Below are positions 1,078-60,774 of a stretch of DNA of 64,000 nucleotides, piece by piece; the first letter of the stretch is position 1, and each line of letters starts with the position of its first letter. Made by a program: the position numbers and the translations under genes. The notes below the pieces were generated by a model. The model was not told where the DNA came from. It was given only the letters and a program-made list of their open reading frames with translations, and ran no database searches. Source of the stretch: a phage; sequence record PX880103.1; one strand, written 5' to 3'.

Positions 1078-1350
1078 TTATTTGTTCGTATACATCTCTA
1101 GATATCGATATACACCCTCAAAACCCTCGTTGAATTCGTCGATGAGGGTTTTCTTATCTTCTTGGGTTAATTCAGAAACAATTTTACGGAATGAATTCTG
1201 ATTCAACTTTCTACCTTCATGCATTACTCCAATCTCATTTAGAAATGCAATAAAATTAGCACGATTCTCAACAATATCTTCTCTGGAAAATTTAATCAAA
1301 ATAGACGCAACAGTAATAATTTCACGAACTGTATCAATGTTTTTATTCAT
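1078..1350 (-). CDS. asiA: Anti-sigma70 factor AsiA
   Basis: 90 aa; sequence recognisable as AsiA (MNKNIDTVREIITVASILIKFSREDIVENRANFIAFLNEIG...); ATG confirmed at 1348-1350. Confidence 0.9.
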   Translation of the reverse strand: MNKNIDTVREIITVASILIKFSREDIVENRANFIAFLNEIGVMHEGRKLNQNSFRKIVSELTQEDKKTLIDEFNEGFEGVYRYLEMYTNK

Positions 1351-3169: not shown

Positions 3170-3805
3170 TCACAGTTCAGATGCTACAGTGATTACAGCT
3201 TCAATGTTTTCTGCCGAGCGTTTAATATCAAGATACACATTACCGTTTTTAGCGATTTTACATGACATTCCGATATCAGTAAATTTCTGAATATGATGTT
3301 CCATCATTTTGTATCCAAAAATTCGCATATTTCCATTATTGTTAATTTCAAAATTACGAATTCCGTGAGTGCGTTTTTCTAAAATAGCAAGATAGTTACT
3401 GCGATAAGTTTCAACCTTTTTAAGAACAAATCCATTTTCATCTAAAAGTTTTAACATGAGGTCTTTATCTTCTTCCATATCGGAAGTAATCTCACGAGCT
3501 TTACGAGTTGCTCGTTTTTTCAGCAGTTCCGGAGCATTTTCCTGTGCATATAAAGTTGCTGCATTTGAAATAATATCTTGAGCTTCACCAGTAATGATTA
3601 ATCCATCACCAGATTTCTCCACTAGGCCTTTTTTAATCAATACCCCAATATTACTATTAACTACCGCGTTACCTAAATCTGGATGCACCTCACGAACTTC
3701 TGCGGCTGTAATGAAATCTTTCTTAGCAATGGTAATTAAAATCGCAGCAGTTTTTTCATTCAGAACATCGTTAGAAGCTTTGATGATGTAAGTTACTTTA
3801 GACAT
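3170..3805 (-). CDS. motA: Middle-transcription activator MotA
   Basis: 211 aa, the size of T4 MotA; ATG confirmed at 3803-3805 behind a GGAG SD in the conserved leader. Confidence 0.9.
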   Translation of the reverse strand: MSKVTYIIKASNDVLNEKTAAILITIAKKDFITAAEVREVHPDLGNAVVNSNIGVLIKKGLVEKSGDGLIITGEAQDIISNAATLYAQENAPELLKKRATRKAREITSDMEEDKDLMLKLLDENGFVLKKVETYRSNYLAILEKRTHGIRNFEINNNGNMRIFGYKMMEHHIQKFTDIGMSCKIAKNGNVYLDIKRSAENIEAVITVASEL

Positions 3806-4085: not shown

Positions 4086-5410
4086 TTGATTTCCTCTAAA
4101 TCTTTGGTGTATTCAGTAACTACATCAGTAGTTTTCCAATATTCGTTTTCTTCTTTTTTAGCTTTAGCTTCTTCAGCAAGTTTCTTTGCTTCATCGGAAG
4201 TCATATGAAAAATATTCATTCCAACTAGTTTATCAACATAAGAAGAATACATATCGATTTTCGAAAGTTCTTCGGTCAGTTCTTTACGAGTTTTACCCTG
4301 TACAACAATTTCACCTGAAATTACTTTCTTAATGAAATGTGCCTTGGCAAAGGCTAAACGAAAAGCTGACTCAGTTTCTTTAATTTTGTTATCAATTCGT
4401 TTTTGGACATAAGTTTTACGAACTTCAACAAAGTCTTTAATTAAATCAACTACGTTATCGTAAACTTGTAGTTTTCCTTTCTCATTAATAACCGTAATAT
4501 TCTGAGAACGACGCTCAATCAACCCGAAGTCTTTCATAATTTTTGCATGGCGTTCTTCTTCGTTATCGCTCAAAGAGTATTCTTTGCGGAATTTAACTTT
4601 GAAGCCAAAACCATGCTCACCACAAGCATCATCCCATGTAATGAAGCCTTTATCTTCAAGTGGGTCTAAGATTTTACTCACATAAGTTTCACGATCATAC
4701 TTGTACGGAATCTCAGTGATATGCATTTGAGTTCGTGAAGTAAACTTATATGTTCCACGAATTTCATATTGCCCATCAATTTCAACGACTTCACCGCGAA
4801 ATTCTGGGAATTCTACCTTCGGTTTAGTTACTTTCTTTCCTTGAAGAGCTTGCAGTACAGCTTTCTTGACAGAAGAAACACTATGAGGAAGAATGTAAGT
4901 TGCATAACCAGTTGCAATACCGGAAACGCCATTAAGAAGAACAGTAGGAATAATAGGCAAATAGAAAGCAGGCGGAATGTGTTCTTTATCTTGATGTACC
5001 GGAGCATATTCAGTATCTTTATATACGTTATAGAAATTTTTACTTACACGAGCAAAAATATAACGACTTGCTGCTGCTTTTTGAACGGTACGAGAACCAA
5101 AGTTTCCTTGACCATCTAACAGAGGAAAGTTATTATTCCAGGTGTTAGCCATCAAAGCGCCCGCATCTTGTGCAGAGTTTTCGCCATGGTGATATCCAAG
5201 GTCCGCTACACCACCTGCGATAGAAGCGAGTTTGTGAAACTTATCTTTATTTCCTCGCGCCAAATCAAGAGCTCGAGCAATAACAAATCGTTGAACTGGC
5301 TTAAATCCATCAATCATATTTGGAATAGCACGATTTTCAACCGTGTACATAGCATAAGCCAATGCTTCATTATCAATGATACTTTTTAAATCGCGATTAT
5401 TCAGTTGCAT
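4082..5410 (-). CDS. 52: DNA topoisomerase II medium subunit gp52
   Basis: 442 aa as in T4 gp52; GyrA-like breakage-reunion sequence; ATG confirmed. Confidence 0.95.
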   Translation of the reverse strand: MQLNNRDLKSIIDNEALAYAMYTVENRAIPNMIDGFKPVQRFVIARALDLARGNKDKFHKLASIAGGVADLGYHHGENSAQDAGALMANTWNNNFPLLDGQGNFGSRTVQKAAASRYIFARVSKNFYNVYKDTEYAPVHQDKEHIPPAFYLPIIPTVLLNGVSGIATGYATYILPHSVSSVKKAVLQALQGKKVTKPKVEFPEFRGEVVEIDGQYEIRGTYKFTSRTQMHITEIPYKYDRETYVSKILDPLEDKGFITWDDACGEHGFGFKVKFRKEYSLSDNEEERHAKIMKDFGLIERRSQNITVINEKGKLQVYDNVVDLIKDFVEVRKTYVQKRIDNKIKETESAFRLAFAKAHFIKKVISGEIVVQGKTRKELTEELSKIDMYSSYVDKLVGMNIFHMTSDEAKKLAEEAKAKKEENEYWKTTDVVTEYTKDLEEIK

Positions 5411-11543: not shown

Positions 11544-11573
11544 ATTATACCACATCCTTGTGGTAAAGTAAAC
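11544..11573 (-). promoter_or_regulatory. Early promoter for rIIA.1/rIIA (GTTTAC-N18-TATAAT)
   Basis: Minus strand GTTTACtttaccacaaggatgtggTATAAT; -35 overlaps gene 39 stop. Confidence 0.65.
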
Positions 11574-13390
11574 TACTGGCTCATCCATTCTTTACGAAGG
11601 TCAGCATTATCTCCCATGAGCATTTCAAAAAGCTCTTTCCAGTTCTCAGGAAGTTTAACAACATCATATACTGGGTTTTGAATCATCTCACGATATTCAG
11701 ATTTTTCCAAAGAGCCAAGTCCTTTAATATAACGGATGCTATGTTTAGGTAGAGCATCTTTGGCACTCTCATATTCAGCGACTGTATAAAACCATTCTTG
11801 TTTTTTACCGACCTGAGCGATGATTACAGGAGTTTTGACAAAGCGAATTCTTCCTTGTTCAAACAGTTCTGGCCAATTACTAAAAAATCCGAGCAGAGAA
11901 GGATAAATGCTTCCTAGACCATCATGGTCAGCATCAGTCATAATAGCAATATTATGATAATTCAAGTTTTCAGCTTTTTCACCGAGAACTAATCCAGTGA
12001 TTGCGCAAATATCAAATAGTTCTTTGTTTTTAAGCATATCGGCATATGACATACCCCAGCTATTAAGAACTTTACCGCGTAATGGATAACCACCGTGAAG
12101 TTCTTTATCACGAACATCAATAAGATATCCGATAGCAGAATCACCCTCGGTTAAGAACAATGTAGTGTCAGCATCTTTACCGCAAAGATTCGCTTTAATA
12201 TGTTTATGAACCTTAGCTTTAGAAGCCTTTTTAGCTGCTTTAGTTTCTGCTGCTTTTTCTGCTGCCAATTTACGAGCTAATGCTGCTTCAATAATTGGCA
12301 TTAGAATTGCTTCATTATTTAGAATAGCGCGTGAAATCTTTTTAGCATCAAGTTGAATATGACTACGAATTTCACCAAATGGAGAAGTCAAACGCTCTTT
12401 AGTTTGAGAGTCAAATCGCATGTTTTTCATATCGCGAACAAACATAACGATAGTCAAACATTCTTTAACACGTGCTTTAGTCACATCAATTTTGAACTTA
12501 CGTTTGATTTGTGGAATAAGGTCTTCACAAATATCATCCATAACACAGTCAATGTGATGGCCACCATTCTTAGTATGAATGTTATTGACGTATGTTAATT
12601 GACGAAAACCATCCGGTGAACGACCAACCGCAATAGAACAATTTTCTTGTTCTTGAACGATAGCATGTTCATCATATTGGCGTGCGTATTTCTTAAAATT
12701 ACCCTGAACCTTTTTACCATTAAAGGTAAATTGAATATCAGGATAAACAACAGCAAGTGTTTGGAGACGATCTAGTGTAATGTCAAGATAAACTTGGGAC
12801 AGCTCATTAGTTTCAAATGACATAAAATCAGGAATGAAAGTAACACGGGTTCCTTTCCATTTTCCAGGAATATCTTCCCATGATTTATTTTCCATGCCGT
12901 TTGAACAACGAACTACAATATTATTTTGACCATCGCCAGTTTCACCAACAAACATCACAGAAAAAATGTTTGTCAAACTAGAACCAACACCATTCATACC
13001 GCCAGTGACGCGTTCTTTATCATCACCAAAGTTACCACCTGCTTTTGGAATAGTCCATGCAGCAACAGGACCAGGAATTTCTTCACCGGTAGGTGTTTTA
13101 ACCATTGCCTGCGGAATACCACGACCGTTATCTTCAACTGTTACTTGATTGTTTTTAATAGTAACATTAATTTTATTTGCGAATTTAAACTTAGTACGAA
13201 TACCTTCATCTACTGAGTTATCGATAATTTCATCAATAAGCTTAACAAGACCAGGTACATACTGAACACTTTCCCATTTACCAAACAGAAAGCGCTCATG
13301 CATTTCATTAGCAGAAGAGCCAATGTACATGCCGCTACGCTTTTTGATATGTTCAATATCGCTCAGAATTTTAATTTCATTCTTAATCAT
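11573..13390 (-). CDS. 39: DNA topoisomerase II large (ATPase) subunit, uninterrupted gene 39
   Basis: 605 aa from ATG at 13390 (track adds a GTG codon); N-terminus MIKNEIKILSDIEHIKKRSGMYIGS as in T4 gp39; continues through the region that is gene 60 in T4. Confidence 0.9.
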   Translation of the reverse strand: MIKNEIKILSDIEHIKKRSGMYIGSSANEMHERFLFGKWESVQYVPGLVKLIDEIIDNSVDEGIRTKFKFANKINVTIKNNQVTVEDNGRGIPQAMVKTPTGEEIPGPVAAWTIPKAGGNFGDDKERVTGGMNGVGSSLTNIFSVMFVGETGDGQNNIVVRCSNGMENKSWEDIPGKWKGTRVTFIPDFMSFETNELSQVYLDITLDRLQTLAVVYPDIQFTFNGKKVQGNFKKYARQYDEHAIVQEQENCSIAVGRSPDGFRQLTYVNNIHTKNGGHHIDCVMDDICEDLIPQIKRKFKIDVTKARVKECLTIVMFVRDMKNMRFDSQTKERLTSPFGEIRSHIQLDAKKISRAILNNEAILMPIIEAALARKLAAEKAAETKAAKKASKAKVHKHIKANLCGKDADTTLFLTEGDSAIGYLIDVRDKELHGGYPLRGKVLNSWGMSYADMLKNKELFDICAITGLVLGEKAENLNYHNIAIMTDADHDGLGSIYPSLLGFFSNWPELFEQGRIRFVKTPVIIAQVGKKQEWFYTVAEYESAKDALPKHSIRYIKGLGSLEKSEYREMIQNPVYDVVKLPENWKELFEMLMGDNADLRKEWMSQ

Positions 13391-13417
13391 CACTTATCCT
13401 CGTTTGGTTTCGGGAAT

Positions 13418-13443
13418 ATTATACTCCAGTAATCATAAAGCTA
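13418..13443 (-). promoter_or_regulatory. Middle-promoter-like element (MotA-box-like TAGCTTTA, 12 bp, TATAAT) upstream of gene 39
   Basis: Minus strand cctTTAGCTTTATgattactggagTATAAT directly after the 13443-13460 hairpin; one mismatch to the TGCTTtA core. Confidence 0.45.
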
Positions 13444-13460
13444 AAGGCCCGAAGGCCTTT
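13443..13460 (-). terminator. GGCCCGAAGGCC hairpin
   Basis: aaaggcc-cgaa-ggccttt; follows the stop of the lipoprotein gene. Confidence 0.5.
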
Positions 13461-34073: not shown

Positions 34074-36770
34074 TCAGCCAAACAGGAAGTCTAACGAAGC
34101 TTTTTCCTCATAGTCCATACCCGCCGATTCACACATACCCGCAAGCGGTTTAACAAACGATTTTTGGAACAAAGTTGAGTAGTCAATCCAAGACAGTACG
34201 TCAGAACGAATTTCCTTTGGAAGTTCTGTACCCGACGGCCAAGCAATACACTTGTCACCAAATGGATTTCCTTCACGTAATGGAAGAACCATTACTTTAT
34301 TTCCATCCAAAATTGGAGCTACACCTAAACCACTAACAGCTCGACGATAAGTTAGCACACCACGAATATGGAACGGGCATTTAAATCCTGGCCAACCTTT
34401 ATCATCATATTTCGCTATATCGTTCGCAGTTTTTACTTCAGCAATAACTTTATAGTCAAGTTGACGATATTCTTTCTCGAAGTTCTTGTAATATTCTTGG
34501 ACAGACTCTTCACCTTCCTGAAGAATACGACGAATACTTTCTTCGAGAGCTTCTTGCACTGCCTTTGGTGTTGAACTCTGCTGAGTTTCCATACCCATGA
34601 TTTTTAGATGCGGTTCAGCAAATCGCTTATCTTCCATATCATAAACGTTCAGAGCATAACGCTTTTTCGCTTTCCAAAATCCACCAACACCCTTTGAACC
34701 AAGTGGAGGGCAAGAAATAGCTTCACGGTCCATATGCATCAGATGCTCGCGGTTATTCATATAATCACATAACTCACGATATGCAACATCAATCATAGGT
34801 TCCATCTTTTTCTTACCGAACTGATTCATGAATTCAACCAAATCGTTCTGCTCTTTGAATCGGTCAAGACCTACTTTTTCAATAACTTTATCTACGCAAA
34901 CATATACCGAATCAGTATCACCTGCTGCAATGAAATCTTCACCATTAGTTCCGCATACTTTATTCAGATATTCATTAATTTTACGAGCAATCCACTGAAT
35001 ACCAACTTGGCCGAAAATTGTGATAGCAGTAGCATTTCGCAAATCATAGTAACGGAAATGAATATTACCAAGAGCACCATAAAGACTGTTAATAAGAATT
35101 TTACGGTTCAGCTGATTTGTGTTAGCAAGTGTAGCTGCTTTTTCACATTCCTCAATCAGACTATTGAGAACAGATTCAGTATAATTCGATAGCTCATTTA
35201 AGAAATCATCACTGAACTTAACATATCGTTCAACTTCTGGTTTAGTTGAACAGGACCCTGCGCCTTTCATAATAATCTTTTTAATAGCTTCGGCATTCAT
35301 TTCTTCAGCGAACATTTTCTTTTTCCAATCTTTACGCTGGAAAAATACTTTAGCAATTTCCTTTGGAATGATACCTTCTTGATGCTTATCATACATCCAT
35401 CCATTCGGAGAACAAGAATATTCATCACTCGGTTTAGGAGCTGTTCCTGCGATATATTCATGAATTGGATGAACTTTAAACTGCCCACGAATAGTCTCAG
35501 GACTAATGTTAACCTGACGAATAATGCTCGGATACAGAGACGTCAAGTCAAAACTCATAATATATCGACGAGCAATTGGTTTAGGTTCAAATACAAATGC
35601 ACCCGGAAAACTTTGTTTAACGTGCGAACCTTGTTGAGGAATAACCTTATGTTCACCTTTCAATGAGTTAAAAATAATAGCATCCCAAGTTTTAATAGGA
35701 CTCATTACACCAGAAAAAGGCATTTTAGCATAATAAGACATACTTAAAACTAGATCGATAAACCCGCGAATTTTATCAATTGCTTGAACTGATTCTACGT
35801 CAATGATGTTATAACTAATGTATCGTTGATGATTAGTCTCACGAAGTTTATTAATAGGGCCATCATATGGTAATTTACCTTTTTTGGTTTCATGTTGAGC
35901 AACTGATTCCAAAGAGAATGACGGCAAATTAGTAAAAGCGAATTTCTTGTATAAATCTAAATAATCAAGAATAGATACGCCATCAATAGAATAAATTTCT
36001 TTGCTACCGTACATATTTTGAATTAGTTTAGATTTTACTCGACCGATTGGAGAGAAGCGTTTCATACTGCGTTCACCTAGAATCATTTTAACACGATTCA
36101 TGATATATGGAACGTCAAATCCCTCAATATTCCAACCAGTAAAAATAGCAGGTCGTTTCTGTTCCCAGAGATTGATATATTCCATGAGCATATCACGCTC
36201 ATTATCGAATGGCATATAAATTACTCGGTCAAGAATTTCTTGAGGAACTTCATCACCACCTTCACAGTCAAGCTTAGCAGCTAACTTTGCATCCCATTTT
36301 GATACTGAGCCGTACATTGAATTCAAAAGGTCGAAAACATAAAAACGGTCGTCAATTGAATCATAATGAGTGATAGCATCAATTTCATATTCTGCTTTCA
36401 TTGGGTCAGGAAATTTATCACCAGTAACCTCAATGTCACAGTTAGCTACACGAACAAATTTTCGGTCATAAACAATTTCTGAACCATATGTATCACTGAT
36501 ATAAGCGAGTTTAAAATCGTTCATACCGAGAGCTTCGAGACCGATGTCTTCCATTCGCTTCATCCAATCTCGAGCATCTTTCATTGATGGAAATTTTTGA
36601 GGAGCGCAGTTTTTACCATAGATGTCTTTGTATTTTGACTCTTCCTTACAATGCCTAAACATAGTTGGAAGATATTCTACTTCACGAGTACGTTCCTTTC
36701 CATTTTCATCAATATAGCGTTCAACAATATTATTTCCGACTGTTTCGATAGAGATATAAAATTCTTTCAT
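34074..36770 (-). CDS. 43: DNA polymerase gp43 (family B)
   Basis: 898 aa as in T4 gp43; exonuclease and polymerase motifs (e.g. YGDTDS); ATG confirmed. Confidence 0.95.
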   Translation of the reverse strand: MKEFYISIETVGNNIVERYIDENGKERTREVEYLPTMFRHCKEESKYKDIYGKNCAPQKFPSMKDARDWMKRMEDIGLEALGMNDFKLAYISDTYGSEIVYDRKFVRVANCDIEVTGDKFPDPMKAEYEIDAITHYDSIDDRFYVFDLLNSMYGSVSKWDAKLAAKLDCEGGDEVPQEILDRVIYMPFDNERDMLMEYINLWEQKRPAIFTGWNIEGFDVPYIMNRVKMILGERSMKRFSPIGRVKSKLIQNMYGSKEIYSIDGVSILDYLDLYKKFAFTNLPSFSLESVAQHETKKGKLPYDGPINKLRETNHQRYISYNIIDVESVQAIDKIRGFIDLVLSMSYYAKMPFSGVMSPIKTWDAIIFNSLKGEHKVIPQQGSHVKQSFPGAFVFEPKPIARRYIMSFDLTSLYPSIIRQVNISPETIRGQFKVHPIHEYIAGTAPKPSDEYSCSPNGWMYDKHQEGIIPKEIAKVFFQRKDWKKKMFAEEMNAEAIKKIIMKGAGSCSTKPEVERYVKFSDDFLNELSNYTESVLNSLIEECEKAATLANTNQLNRKILINSLYGALGNIHFRYYDLRNATAITIFGQVGIQWIARKINEYLNKVCGTNGEDFIAAGDTDSVYVCVDKVIEKVGLDRFKEQNDLVEFMNQFGKKKMEPMIDVAYRELCDYMNNREHLMHMDREAISCPPLGSKGVGGFWKAKKRYALNVYDMEDKRFAEPHLKIMGMETQQSSTPKAVQEALEESIRRILQEGEESVQEYYKNFEKEYRQLDYKVIAEVKTANDIAKYDDKGWPGFKCPFHIRGVLTYRRAVSGLGVAPILDGNKVMVLPLREGNPFGDKCIAWPSGTELPKEIRSDVLSWIDYSTLFQKSFVKPLAGMCESAGMDYEEKASLDFLFG

Positions 36771-37782: not shown

Positions 37783-38742
37783 TCACTTCCACTGCATTTC
37801 ACATGCTAATTGAATGAAAAGATAAACTAAATGCAATTCAGTATTAGCTGCAATACCATGATACTGATTATTTTCGCCAACAATTTCGTACATACGAATA
37901 ATACTCTGTGGAGTTACACGTGAATAGATTTCTTCGGCAAGTTTACCCACGAACCACGAATAATCAGCCGCATATTTTGGTGCTAAAGCTCTGAGTTGTT
38001 TAACATCTTTATTTTTGAGAGACTCAAGAACATCATCAATAGCACCACGATCGTTAGTAACCAGTGATAAAATACCAGCATCCAAAACACCTTTAGATGA
38101 ATAACTATCGAGCTCGCCAATAGTTTTACGAAAATCAGGAAAATTCTTTTTAACCAAAGCTGCTACAACTTTCATATCAGCTATAGCAATTCCTTCATGC
38201 TTACAGATTTCAGTCAATCGACGAATCATCTGCTTCATCATTTCAATTTTATCTTCATCGGTCGGTTGACCGAATGTAATAACTCGACAGCGTGACTGAA
38301 GTGGTTTAATAATACCATCAATATTGTTAGCAGTAATAATAATACTACAGTTTGAACTATAAGCTTCCATAAAGGAACGAAGATGTCGCTGAGACTCTGC
38401 TAACCCTGAGCGGTCAAATTCATCAATAACGATTACTTTTTGACGACCATCAAATGAAGCGGCGCTGGCAAAATTAGTCAAAGGACCACGAACGAAATCA
38501 ATTTTACAATCTGATCCATTCACAAACATCATATCAGCATTTACATCATGACACAATGCTTTTGCTACAGTTGTTTTACCTGTTCCTGGAGAAGGAGAAT
38601 GAAGAATAATATGTGGAATCTTACCTTTACTTGTAATAGATTTAAAGGTTTCTTTATCAAAGGCGGGAAGAATACATTCATCGATAGTAGATGGACGATA
38701 TTTCTGTTCAAGAATGTGTTCTTTTTCATTTACGGTAATCAT
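37783..38742 (-). CDS. 44: Clamp-loader ATPase gp44
   Basis: 319 aa from ATG at 38742 with GAGGAAA SD ([13 protein letters not shown]...); Walker A GTGKTT. Confidence 0.9.
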
Positions 38743-42943: not shown

Positions 42944-43178
42944 CCTTAATACAAGATACAGCCATATCTCGCAATGATTTAGGTGTGTCATTATCTAAAA
43001 TGTTGAAGTTAAAGGATACAGCCCAGTCAGTGCAGACCGTAACTTTTTTAATACAATTATCTTCAACTTCTAGTGGTTCAAACCAGTATTCAATAATTTC
43101 TTTATGACCAATATCATCTTTTACTTCACATTCAAAATGCTGACTCATCATAACATTTTTAAATTCATCAAAAGTCAT
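42915..43178 (-). CDS. Hypothetical protein (87 aa, 46.2 position)
   Basis: ORF track; overlaps gene 47 stop by 4 nt. Confidence 0.5.
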   Translation of the reverse strand: MTFDEFKNVMMSQHFECEVKDDIGHKEIIEYWFEPLEVEDNCIKKVTVCTDWAVSFNFNILDNDTPKSLRDMAVSCIKDAYCEVFDI

Positions 43179-44194
43179 TGTGTTGCCTCTACATATAACT
43201 GATTTGCATATTGAATAAGTGCTTCACGGTCAGAATCAGTGATGTCTGGAATTGCATTAATGTATTCTTCCATCAATGTCTGAAGCGATTGAACTTCAAC
43301 TTCTTCACTGTCATCTGACTCGACAGAGTTATCAATCTTTGACACAACTCGTAATGAATGCACAACTTTCTCTAGTTCAGATTCGAACTTCGTCAGATTT
43401 TTGTCTACTTCAGTTACTATAACACGTACTGATAGATTTGTAAAATCTTTATAGTCAATTTTTCCTTTAAATGGATAATGAATTCTACGATGCCAAGTAG
43501 TATTGTTTGGAATAAATTCCATTCGTTCTGTTTCTGTATCAAACATCCAGAACCCGCGGGGGTCATTCTCGTCACCTGCAGTTAGTGTCCATGGTGTCCC
43601 AATATATCTGACGTTAGCAGCCTCAGAGATAGTATGGAAGTGACCAGACCACACTTCTTTGTAAGTCTTAAGGAAATCAGGTTCAAGACCGTGAGATTTC
43701 ATTCCTTTATAAAAATAAAATCCATTCAGTTCCCAGTGACCGACACAATAAGAAGCAGATGAAGTTTTGATATGCTCAAGAATTTCACCAGTATTTTCTT
43801 CGCACATCCAAGGAATCAAATCAATCAAACATCCGTCAAAATCTACTGTAGTAGGCTTATCATATACTTTAACATTAGGATATTTAGCCAAAAGCTCAGT
43901 AGAGGCATTTGGAGTTAAAGTATTTTTAAAGTGCATATCATGGTTTCCTACAACAGTATGTAGGGTAATACCAGCATCATCAAGCATTTGAACTATTTCA
44001 CGGGCGAACTCCATAGTTTTATGCGTGATTGCTTTTCGCACATCAAAAATATCGCCGTATTGAATCCAGGTAGTAATTCCATTTTTCTTAGAATATTCTA
44101 TCGCTTGCTTAATTCCATCCAACTGAATGGATTGAACCCACTCGTCATCGGCTTTAACGCCTAAATGCCAATCACCTAAATTTAAAATTTTCAT
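43175..44194 (-). CDS. 47: Recombination nuclease subunit gp47 (SbcD/Mre11-like)
   Basis: 339 aa as in T4 gp47; phosphoesterase motifs (GDWH, GNHD); ATG confirmed. Confidence 0.9.
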   Translation of the reverse strand: MKILNLGDWHLGVKADDEWVQSIQLDGIKQAIEYSKKNGITTWIQYGDIFDVRKAITHKTMEFAREIVQMLDDAGITLHTVVGNHDMHFKNTLTPNASTELLAKYPNVKVYDKPTTVDFDGCLIDLIPWMCEENTGEILEHIKTSSASYCVGHWELNGFYFYKGMKSHGLEPDFLKTYKEVWSGHFHTISEAANVRYIGTPWTLTAGDENDPRGFWMFDTETERMEFIPNNTTWHRRIHYPFKGKIDYKDFTNLSVRVIVTEVDKNLTKFESELEKVVHSLRVVSKIDNSVESDDSEEVEVQSLQTLMEEYINAIPDITDSDREALIQYANQLYVEATQ

Positions 44195-44329
44195 ATATCA
44201 AGAACCGTCATTGAAATGCAAAATAAAATTATTGAAATAAATCCATCTGGAGTGCTAAAGAACCCAATCCAACATGCTCTAGTGAATAGATAAAATGCAA
44301 GAAAAAGTATCACATATCCAAGAAATATC

Positions 44330-44355
44330 ATTATATCAAACTCTGTATAAAGCTA
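44330..44355 (-). promoter_or_regulatory. Middle-promoter-like element (TAGCTTTA, 12 bp, TATAAT) upstream of gene 47
   Basis: Minus strand cccTTTAGCTTTATacagagtttgaTATAAT directly after the 44355-44372 hairpin; same arrangement as 13418-13460. Confidence 0.45.
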
Positions 44356-44372
44356 AAGGGCCGAAGCCCTTT
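44355..44372 (-). terminator. GGGCCGAAGCCC hairpin overlapping alpha-gt stop
   Basis: aaagggc-cgaa-gcccttt. Confidence 0.5.
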
Positions 44373-45573
44373 ATTTTGTAATAATGTCAAACTGTTCTTT
44401 AAAGCAGAAGCTTGAATCTTGATGCTGATACAAAAATTCATATGCTTTTTCTCGCTCACGGTCATAAAGAGCTCGGTCAGATGACAGTTCTTTAATACGT
44501 TCAAATGTTGATTCCATATCATTTTCATCAAACCAAATGATACCGCTATCATGCGAGGTCAAAGGAGTATTATCAACACGGAATTTTAAATTTTCGCCAG
44601 TAGATTTCCAAAATACTGGAATTGTTCCACATGCACCAAGCTCGAGGTGAGTATATTCTAAAGAACGTTGTAGATATTTTTTATCCAACTTACTCAACTG
44701 ATAACCAAATCCGGATTTACTCATGCGTTCAAGCATTTCGCTATTTACATAGCGATCGAGAATTTGCGTTGGCAAATTAGGAGCAATTTTAATTTGGTCT
44801 ACTTGATGAAGACGATAATACTCGTATGGAATTCCTTTTTCTTTAATAGGAATGAACGCTGGAGAACGTTCCAGACCTTCCATAATAGTACTTAGTCCTG
44901 CAGGTTTAAGATGTTTTTCGTGAAAATCAAACATCTGATAAAAACCTTTCCATGTAGTCGTACGACCAATCCAACGGTTGACATTCATGTTAATTTCAGA
45001 AACATCTTTCCAGTAGGTTGACCGAACCTTCGCAATATCCATAGGAGGCTGAAAGTTATATACTGTCGGCGCTTCTTCAATATCATCAAACAAAGAAACT
45101 GTTTCAGGATACCATTCTTTCATCAGAACTTTATTAAAATCACCATTATCAGAATGGCTAAAAATAACATCAGCTCGACGAACAGTTTCTTCTAATCCCA
45201 AATTTCGGCGCAAAGAAAGAGAAGAATGGTCATGCTGATAAACTACAACACGAACAGAAGGTTTAATGTTATCAATAATTTTTTTATAGTTATTAATAGT
45301 GTCTTCTTCAACTGAAGTAGCAGGAACTGAATTGATAATTAGAATATCACAATCATTTACCAGCTTAAGTGTTTTATCGTATTCTTTTGCCAATAAAACC
45401 GGAATTGAAAATGATTTATAATCATGCGCACAGTTACGAGTAAATGATTTATCTTTGGCATAAACCAAAGTTACTTCATGACCATTTTTAATAAACCAAT
45501 CACGTTGCTCAAGAGAAAATTTAGTTACACCACAACCTTCAAGACCTCGAGCCATAAAAATACATACTTTCAT
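44371..45573 (-). CDS. a-gt: DNA alpha-glucosyltransferase
   Basis: 400 aa; long stretches match T4 alpha-gt (CIFMARGLEGCGVTKFSLEQRDWFIKNGHEVTLVYAKDKSF...); ATG confirmed. Confidence 0.9.
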   Translation of the reverse strand: MKVCIFMARGLEGCGVTKFSLEQRDWFIKNGHEVTLVYAKDKSFTRNCAHDYKSFSIPVLLAKEYDKTLKLVNDCDILIINSVPATSVEEDTINNYKKIIDNIKPSVRVVVYQHDHSSLSLRRNLGLEETVRRADVIFSHSDNGDFNKVLMKEWYPETVSLFDDIEEAPTVYNFQPPMDIAKVRSTYWKDVSEINMNVNRWIGRTTTWKGFYQMFDFHEKHLKPAGLSTIMEGLERSPAFIPIKEKGIPYEYYRLHQVDQIKIAPNLPTQILDRYVNSEMLERMSKSGFGYQLSKLDKKYLQRSLEYTHLELGACGTIPVFWKSTGENLKFRVDNTPLTSHDSGIIWFDENDMESTFERIKELSSDRALYDREREKAYEFLYQHQDSSFCFKEQFDIITK

Positions 45574-45626
45574 TTAATATCCTCATTGTTTTGGTTTATT
45601 TTACCAAAAATTTATAAAGCAATATA

Positions 45627-45640
45627 GGAGCCGAAGCTCC
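45627..45640 (-). terminator. GGAGCCGAAGCTCC hairpin
   Basis: ggagc-cgaa-gctcc; no clear T-run, possibly an RNA-stability stem. Confidence 0.35.
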
Positions 45641-45816
45641 TATCCGCATAATACGCCATACAAAGGCTCATTAGAGCTTCTAAATTTTATGCGCTTATAT
45701 GTTATAGTTCCTTCTGCTTTAGCTTTATCATGAGACTCTTTAAAGCGTCTCATCATTTCCTCTTTAGAGGAACGAATTTTATTATAATCTATTTCAGAAG
45801 TCTGGGTGTTCATCTT

Positions 45817-60772: not shown

Positions 60773-60774
60773 TA

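Follow-up and report, generated by a model that had tools for sequence, protein, structure and literature searches.

Genes and regulators of the window

The analysed stretch of phage DNA (record PX880103.1, 64,000 nucleotides, called here the window) represents a Tequatrovirus, sharing ~98% identity with RB14 and with numerous T4-like coliphages. Its minus strand carries motA (3170..3805), coding for the activator reading the MotA box and recognised by the Pfam domains MotA_activ and MotCF (E values 5e-61 and 3e-67), and asiA (1078..1350; Pfam AsiA, E 1e-41), coding for the co-activator and anti-sigma factor. On the same strand lie gene 39 (11573..13390), of the fused 60plus39 type and coding for the large subunit of topoisomerase II, and the pair comprising 47.1 (44331-44191) and gene 47 (44194-43175), which together occupy 43175..44331.

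Junctions upstream of gene 39 and of 47.1-47

A hairpin followed by a MotA-type box and TATAAT, which the earlier note had described as repeated on the minus strand, is indeed present at 13460-13418 (site 1) and at 44373-44330 (site 2), and the 12-nt spacing to TATAAT holds at both. At site 1, the stop codon of a 39.1-like ORF (13462-13460) ends on the first base of the hairpin AAAGGCC-UUCG-GGCCUUU (13443..13460, minus strand, ~-10.7 kcal/mol). The T-run and MotA box, TTTAGCTTTA, occupy 13436..13445, with the TTT both closing the 3' arm of the stem and opening the U tract. A 12-nt spacer (13424..13435) leads to the -10 element TATAAT (13418..13423), and the 3' end of the module is provided by the Shine-Dalgarno (SD) sequence GAGGA and the ATG (13390) of gene 39. 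On the minus strand the whole reads aaaTAA-AAAGGCC-ttcg-GGCCTTT-AGCTTTA-tgattactggag-TATAAT-attcccG...GAGGAtaagtgATG, with transcription predicted to start at 13411 from homology to the T4 promoter P39.

Site 2 comprises the hairpin UAAAGGGC-UUCG-GCCCUUUA (44354..44373, minus strand, -11 to -12 kcal/mol), whose 5' arm contains the a-gt stop codon TAA (44373-44371), the same T-run and box TTTAGCTTTA (44348..44357), and, past the spacer, an extended -10 element TGaTATAAT (44330..44338, TATAAT at 44335-44330), with the TGn motif in TGATATAAT. Its minus-strand reading is aaaa-TAAAGGGC-ttcg-GCCCTTTA-GCTTTA-tacagagtttga-TATAAT-G, and the start predicted from homology to T4 P47 is 44323, within the 47.1 ORF. 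The ATG of 47.1 is formed by the last three bases of TATAATG at the P47 -10 element (window 44323-44331, minus strand; T4 36576-36584); no evident SD sequence precedes this ATG, which the -10 element overlaps. While the first copy lies upstream of gene 39 as had been claimed, the second does not directly precede gene 47 but the 47.1-47 pair.

Two further details of the earlier description needed revision. The hairpins exist, but not the loop type assigned to them: the transcribed strand has a UUCG loop with a C-G closing pair, and GGGCCGAAGCCC is the plus-strand reading, at site 2 only. The arrangement of elements is shared by both sites but the stem core is not, being GGCC/GGCC at site 1 rather than GGGC/GCCC.

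Identity of the promoters

The consensus of T4 middle promoters comprises the MotA box (a/t)(a/t)(a/t)TGCTTtA located 12 +/- 1 bp from TAtaaT, with single deviations tolerated by MotA (PMC2988021). At both sites TTTAGCTTTA agrees with it in nine of ten positions (tttAGCTTTA, with A for T), so the one-base departure from the MotA core claimed before holds after correction of the alignment, and the -10 element of each has the form TAnnnT at the proper distance. Of the 58 identified T4 middle promoters tabulated with their start sites (Hinton 2010, PMC2988021, Table 1), P39 is listed there with the start at 5349 (Guild et al. 1988) and P47 with the start at 36576 (Guild et al. 1988; Hsu & Karam 1990). 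Placed on the T4 sequence, each of these published starts falls exactly 7 nt past the TATAAT matching that of the window, which shows the promoter reading, and with it the attribution of both copies to sites of T4 middle-mode transcription, to be correct and already known. As judged from the sequence, sites 1 and 2 are P39 and P47, which in T4-type phages act as middle promoters under MotA control; P47 serves 47.1 and gene 47, and both belong to textbook T4 biology.

The T4 promoters P39, P47, and PmobB occupy the same genomic positions, are near-identical in sequence, and have the box centred at -30, 11-12 nt from the sigma-70 -10 element. Nothing substantive differs between T4 (AF158101) and the window, apart from one spacer base at each of sites 1 and 2 and the absence of mobB from the window. 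The GenBank record AF158101 holds no promoter or terminator features, and so the annotation could not decide the matter; P39 and P47 are also unmentioned in Patterson-West 2018, and no global map of transcription starts or 3' ends of T4 was found in the literature.

The motif scan that had been suggested as a check was run, and it returned 20 matches to GCTTTA-N11-13-TAnnnT in the window against 4.4 expected, with 14 of the 20 on the minus strand. The 28-nt pattern TTTAGCTTTAT-N11-TATAAT has two perfect matches in the window, while 0.12 would be expected even with two mismatches allowed. A combined pattern, defined as a perfect hairpin, an A/T run, GCTnnn, 11-13 nt, and TAnnnT, is matched five times, always on the minus strand, compared with 0.1 in Markov resamples. 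The GCTTCG within the hairpin itself was considered as the MotA box of P39 and P47 and rejected, as it lies ~13 nt too far upstream.

The third module and the surroundings of a-gt

The earlier note listed two copies, both of them real, but a third, with a canonical box, is found at 45643-45598, upstream of a-gt. This module (45598..45643, minus strand) consists of the hairpin AUAGGAGC-UUCG-GCUCCUAU, aTTGCTTTA, 11 nt, and TAAAAT, and so also fits the spacer rule; it reads ATAGGAGC-ttcg-GCTCCTAT-aTTGCTTTA-11-TAAAAT on the minus strand, the canonical box being TTGCTTTA / ATTGCTTTA. The stop codon TAG of a-gt.2 is located within its stem, and the SD sequence and start codon (ATG 45573) of a-gt are found 3' of it. 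By homology, the module is assigned as the counterpart of T4 PmobB (Pa-gt.1, start 38682). In T4 (37885-38734) the homing-endonuclease gene mobB is inserted between the PmobB module and a-gt, whereas the corresponding segment of the window (45573-45643) is devoid of mobB, so the PmobB-type promoter would drive a-gt directly.

The a-gt gene of the window is therefore flanked by two modules, whose stems differ (GGAGC in the left and GGGC in the right one). The gene order of T4-type phages is a-gt.2, module, (mobB in T4), a-gt, module, 47.1-47, while in JS98, phage 212, and PhAPEC2 it is a-gt.2, one module, and 47(.1). That promoters, hairpin type, and the idea of composite cassettes are all already in the T4 literature is clear; the mildly new point is that, by its layout, a-gt looks like a cassette bracketed by two hairpin/promoter junctions.

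Composite elements of this kind are known. PeSLs are small composite cassettes of T4-like phages, each joining a stem-loop to an early promoter; they keep the transcription of neighbouring genes separate and promote the shuffling of modules (Arbiol et al. 2010, PMC2839356; Comeau, Arbiol & Krisch 2014, PMC4122927). For the PST/T4 pair, the text of PMC4122927 gives only the consensus of an early-type (PeSL) promoter, and it reports PmSL, a stem-loop with a TGCTT Mot box and a -10 element, for Vibrio phage nt-1. The sites studied here fit that description of PmSL, having a stem-loop directly upstream of a Mot-box promoter within one intergenic gap, and are of a composite kind already described in T4-like phages; PeSL/PmSL elements are associated with plastic genes, and the topology around the window modules is suggestive of a similar association. 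The window modules differ from PmSL in that the T-run of the stem overlaps the Mot box with no gap between them. The SD sequence and start codon at the 3' end, which characterise PeSL/PmSL, are present here at site 1 and the third module but not at site 2.

It could be asked whether the modules are PeSL/PmSL-type mobile regulatory cassettes acting mainly as recombination linkers, by which a-gt and the genes upstream of gene 39 are swapped. Such elements are known in T4-like phages (PMC2839356, PMC4122927), a-gt is placed between two modules in the window while JS98-, 212-, and Mosigvirus-type phages have one between a-gt.2 and 47(.1), the left module with its leader aaccaa... (GGAGC stem, TAAAAT) resembles the JS98 module, and T4 mobB is inserted right past the left module. 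Nevertheless, the shared sequence extends over ~25 nt only and the stems of the flanking modules differ, chimeric junctions or mini-circles were not seen, and illegitimate or homing-endonuclease-driven events could yield the same topology, which makes us regard a mainly recombinational role as unlikely. The two-module versus one-module topology, the likeness of the left module to that of JS98, and the right module ending exactly at the 47.1 ATG suggest that a-gt may have come with its own 3' hairpin and promoter. A still bolder proposal, to which we give a low probability, treats the T-even stem-loop/Mot-box junctions as portable linkers: a-gt would have arrived as a cassette of a-gt, hairpin, and middle promoter right at the start codon of 47.1, transcription of 47-46 would have been re-established from the 3' module that it brought along, 47.1 would have been left dependent on read-through of a terminator leaky by design, and the identical T-to-A change in the T-run/MotA box of P39 and P47 would tune termination against activation.

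The hairpins and transcription termination

The window has 11 hairpins with the UUCG loop on its minus strand, compared with a single plus-strand one exceeding 4 bp; the corresponding T4 numbers are 16 and two. C(UUCG)G hairpins were first discovered in T4 mRNA and are exceptionally stable (Tuerk et al. 1988, recounted in PMC4371310), while T4 intrinsic terminators consist of a G+C stem, a 4-nt loop, and poly(U) (Edgell et al. 2010, PMC2988022). The hairpins of sites 1 and 2 have G+C-rich stems of 7-8 bp with four G-C pairs, the UUCG loop, and energies of -10 to -12 kcal/mol. With the intercistronic C(UUCG)G hairpins of T4 they share the G+C stem, the C-G closed UUCG, and the location right after a stop codon; unlike those hairpins and the terminators described in PMC2988022, they are followed by a short and interrupted U tract. 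At all three modules of the window the upstream stop codon is located on or inside the 5' arm, so that the upstream message has the hairpin at its very 3' terminus.

The tail past the stem at sites 1 and 2 is UUUAGCUUUAU, with five U in the first 8 nt past the G+C core and four of eight past the full stem; the tract soon merges into the MotA box and for this reason is short and interrupted. Such a tail suggests that termination in this phage is probably leaky; the terminator of both sites is probably weak here, while relatives with UUUUUUGCUUUA should have stronger ones. A scan for consensus terminators did not call sites 1 and 2 on the minus strand, but called the third module, and site 2 on the plus strand. 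An approximate d'Aubenton-Carafa-type score (ViennaRNA energies, valid for relative comparison only) is ~-13 at both sites, compared with +11 to +23 in relatives with U5-U6 tails and +17 to +50 at 60773 and 24085, two other places in the window with a strong hairpin and U tract. The validated T4 mobE terminator scores lower still (-33 to -39), and so this approximate score is not decisive. In related genomes, terminators are annotated independently at both positions (by ARNold or similar pipelines).

A close parallel is the mobE terminator with PnrdB of T4 (Wilson & Edgell 2009, PMC2790892), in which a weak terminator is followed by a middle promoter restoring the expression of the downstream essential gene. 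The mobE hairpin, having a short U tract, terminates ~30% of transcription early and ~50% late, and the downstream middle promoter is reported to compensate (PMC2790892, PMC2988022). The mobE and PnrdB elements are separated by most of mobE, whereas in the window the hairpin and the promoter overlap.

An argument for leakiness is provided by 47.1. The mapped T4 P47 start lies 8 nt past the first base of the 47.1 AUG, so the RNA initiated at P47 cannot encode full-length gp47.1. This protein is a well conserved membrane protein of 46 residues, 80-83% identical to its Dhakavirus counterpart with Met1 aligned; since the full-length product is conserved and would be translatable only from RNA reading through the hairpin, the terminator appears to be leaky. 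The overlap seen in the window and T4 is not general, as in JS98 and phage 212 47.1 has an ordinary leader with an SD sequence past the promoter.

The literature yielded no 3'-end data for the hairpins of sites 1 and 2, Uzan & Miller 2010 do not mention them, and at gathering thresholds no Rfam family matches anything in the window. In the supplement of Wolfram-Schauerte 2022 the RNAs of 39.1, 39.2, a-gt, 47.1, 47, and mobB are all classed as 'early'; with both sides of the hairpins in one class, that time course shows no step and does not discriminate. Of the terminator/promoter unit proposed in the earlier note, the promoter half stands, given the mapped T4 starts and the presence of motA and asiA, while the terminator or insulator half is plausible, supported by the conservation of the hairpin though with an interrupted U tract.

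The hairpins might, on the other hand, serve mainly in the protection or processing of RNA 3' ends, shielding the 39.1 and a-gt messages against 3' exonucleases, rather than as terminators. The weak and interrupted U tract in this phage, the exceptional stability of UUCG hairpins, first seen in T4 mRNA (PMC4371310), and the view that nuclease attack limits 'delayed early' RNA in T4 (PMC2988021) speak in its favour. Relatives, however, have uninterrupted U6 tracts typical of intrinsic terminators and positive scores, and the comparable mobE hairpin of T4 does terminate. We consider a predominantly protective role to be possible but rather doubtful, and it is not mutually exclusive with termination.

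Conservation of the junction

Syntenic regions from other genera and from IMG/VR contigs were compared. Upstream of the topoisomerase gene, WG01 (Dhakavirus) has AAGGGC-ttcg-GCCCTT with ttaTGCTTTA-12-TAATAT, and APCEc01 and PhAPEC2 (Mosigvirus) have the same hairpin with TTTGCTTTA-12-TAGAAT; in Klebsiella phage HMGUkp2 the hairpin is AAGGGC-ttag-GCCCTT, followed by TTGCTTTT-12-TAATAT, and in Acinetobacter phage PhT2 it is AAAAGGAGC-catg-GCTCCTTTT, followed by GCTTTT-12-TATAAT. Upstream of 47/47.1, the hairpins and promoters are GGGCC-ttcg-GGCCC with TTTTTGCTATT-12-TAAAAT in Roth80, AAAGGAGC-ttag-GCTCCTTT with TTTGCTTTA-11-TAAAAT in JS98, AAAGGAAGC-ctagt-GCTTCCTTT with TTTGCTTTA-12-TAAAAT in phage 212, and AGGAACTC-ttcg-GAGTTCCT with TTTTTGCTTTA-11-TAGAAT in PhAPEC2. 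The full arrangement is present upstream of 47/47.1 in 31 of 50 IMG/VR contigs, in nine stem/loop variants. In a loop-anchored alignment of ten modules, centred on the hairpins and mixing paralogous with orthologous sites, both sides were changed in eight of nine stem pairs, and neither the observed pairing nor the observed covariation was reached in any of 500 shuffles. Within the Tequatrovirus contigs the differences concern the spacer and one loop base (UUCG to UUUG), and none affects the stem, the box, or the -10 element.

In every compared module the G+C core is followed by 3-6 T that pass without a break into (T)GCT, and the terminator tail thus consists of the nucleotides that make up the A/T-rich 5' portion of the MotA box. 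The gene located upstream of the P39 hairpin varies with the genus (39.1, an RB69ORF005c-like gene, an endolysin gene, or a 30-codon ORF), while the hairpin and promoter are kept. In several lineages (IMG/VR L024-L027; also L029, L030, and L004) a MotA-type promoter precedes the topoisomerase gene without any hairpin, so the two halves are separable. In L024-L027 the stop codon of the upstream gene overlaps the MotA box (gatgTAATGCTTTA-12-TAGAAT, no hairpin), another form of extreme compaction.

Among the 58 mapped T4 middle promoters a hairpin abuts three, against a background of 2.3% (p = 0.15, with a loose definition of the hairpin); in T4 P43 a hairpin overlaps the -35 region, and in P24.3 one lies ~25 nt further upstream. 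With no significant enrichment at these promoters, the idea that a hairpin joined to a promoter is a general rule of middle-promoter design was dropped. The P43 homologue of the window (36845-36814, minus strand) has the UUCG hairpin AAGGGGC-ttcg-GCCCCTT directly past the regA stop codon, overlapping the -35/-30 region of the promoter and lying only 8 nt from TATAAT; within its loop region, GGCTTCGG, a GCTTC resembles the MotA core but is ~3 nt too far upstream.

The adjacency of hairpin and promoter might result from genome compaction alone, an ordinary 3' hairpin and an ordinary promoter being pressed into a gap of 39-69 nt with no functional coupling. The small number of T4 middle promoters with an abutting hairpin, the hairpin-less MotA promoters of gene 39, and the other UUCG hairpins of the window, followed directly by a ribosome-binding site or, after 15-34 nt, by an early promoter, are in line with this view. 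It accounts less well for the hairpin and promoter staying together while the upstream gene is swapped, for the recurrence of the T-run/box overlap at two or three loci in many lineages, and for the excess of the combined pattern (five observed, 0.1 expected), and we judge uncoupled adjacency to be a possible, if less than probable, explanation. In our reading, the junction combines two ordinary elements, and this combination recurs where the intergenic gaps are very short (39 and 69 nt).

Sites 1 and 2 share the A departure, TTTAGCTTTA in place of TTTTGCTTTA, while both loci of relatives have T; with A, the U tract is weaker, and so is the match to the MotA box. Coincidence, conversion, and tuning are all possible origins. 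The likeness of the two loci could go back to a recent duplication or gene conversion, as both carry the identical 13-mer CCTTTAGCTTTAT with the same T-to-A departure from TGCTT, where relatives have TTTTGCTTTA. The stem cores differ (GGCC and GGGC), though, the spacers and flanks are unrelated, and orthologous modules exist for each locus separately in other genera, which makes both old; moreover, the shared constraints (A-run, G+C core, UUCG, T-run, box, and -10 element) can explain the likeness. Recent copying is accordingly held to be highly improbable.

Proposed function of the junction

The explanation that we consider quite probable is that of a compact intergenic junction, in which the C(UUCG)G hairpin of the upstream gene and the middle promoter of the downstream gene or genes share bases, with partial termination followed by MotA/AsiA-dependent re-initiation. 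The hairpin would form the 3' end of the 39.1, a-gt, or a-gt.2 message, starting on or in the stop codon, and the middle promoters P39, P47, and the PmobB/Pa-gt.1 homologue would serve the downstream genes in dependence on MotA and AsiA. The T-run past the G+C stem would act at once as the U tract of the hairpin and as the (a/t)(a/t)(a/t)T of the MotA box. Transcripts coming from upstream early and middle promoters would partly stop in the region of the T-run and MotA box, or be trimmed to the hairpin and stabilised, the hairpin thereby limiting read-through into the promoter. The remaining read-through would represent the 'extension of early transcripts' route to middle genes (for the route see PMC2988021). 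As MotA and AsiA accumulate and remodel sigma-70, polymerase would initiate at ~13411, 44323, and 45591, that is, ~38 nt past the G+C core of the stem (~32 nt past the full stem). The expression of gene 39 and of 47-46 would then be set by middle-mode initiation together with leaky read-through. A terminator placed directly against a promoter would lessen the occlusion of the MotA complex by incoming polymerases (transcriptional interference).

The recovery of two experimentally mapped middle promoters by a reading of the sequence alone constitutes a positive control for such a scan. The overlap of the T-run with the MotA box, the covarying stems, and the bracketing of a-gt could be of use in designing insulated expression cassettes for engineered T4-like phages.

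Other hairpin-promoter arrangements in the window

PeSL-like sites are located on the minus strand at 60773-60695, 24085-24020, and ~3931-3847, each with a strong hairpin and a long U tract, followed after 15-34 nt by a T4-type early promoter (TTTACw-N17-TAyTAT). At 18075-18031, also on the minus strand, a weaker hairpin is found in AGGAGC-tga-GCTCCT ttcataa GCTTTA + 12 + TACTAT, which has no counterpart among the T4 module matches and may be either an unlisted middle promoter or a chance match.
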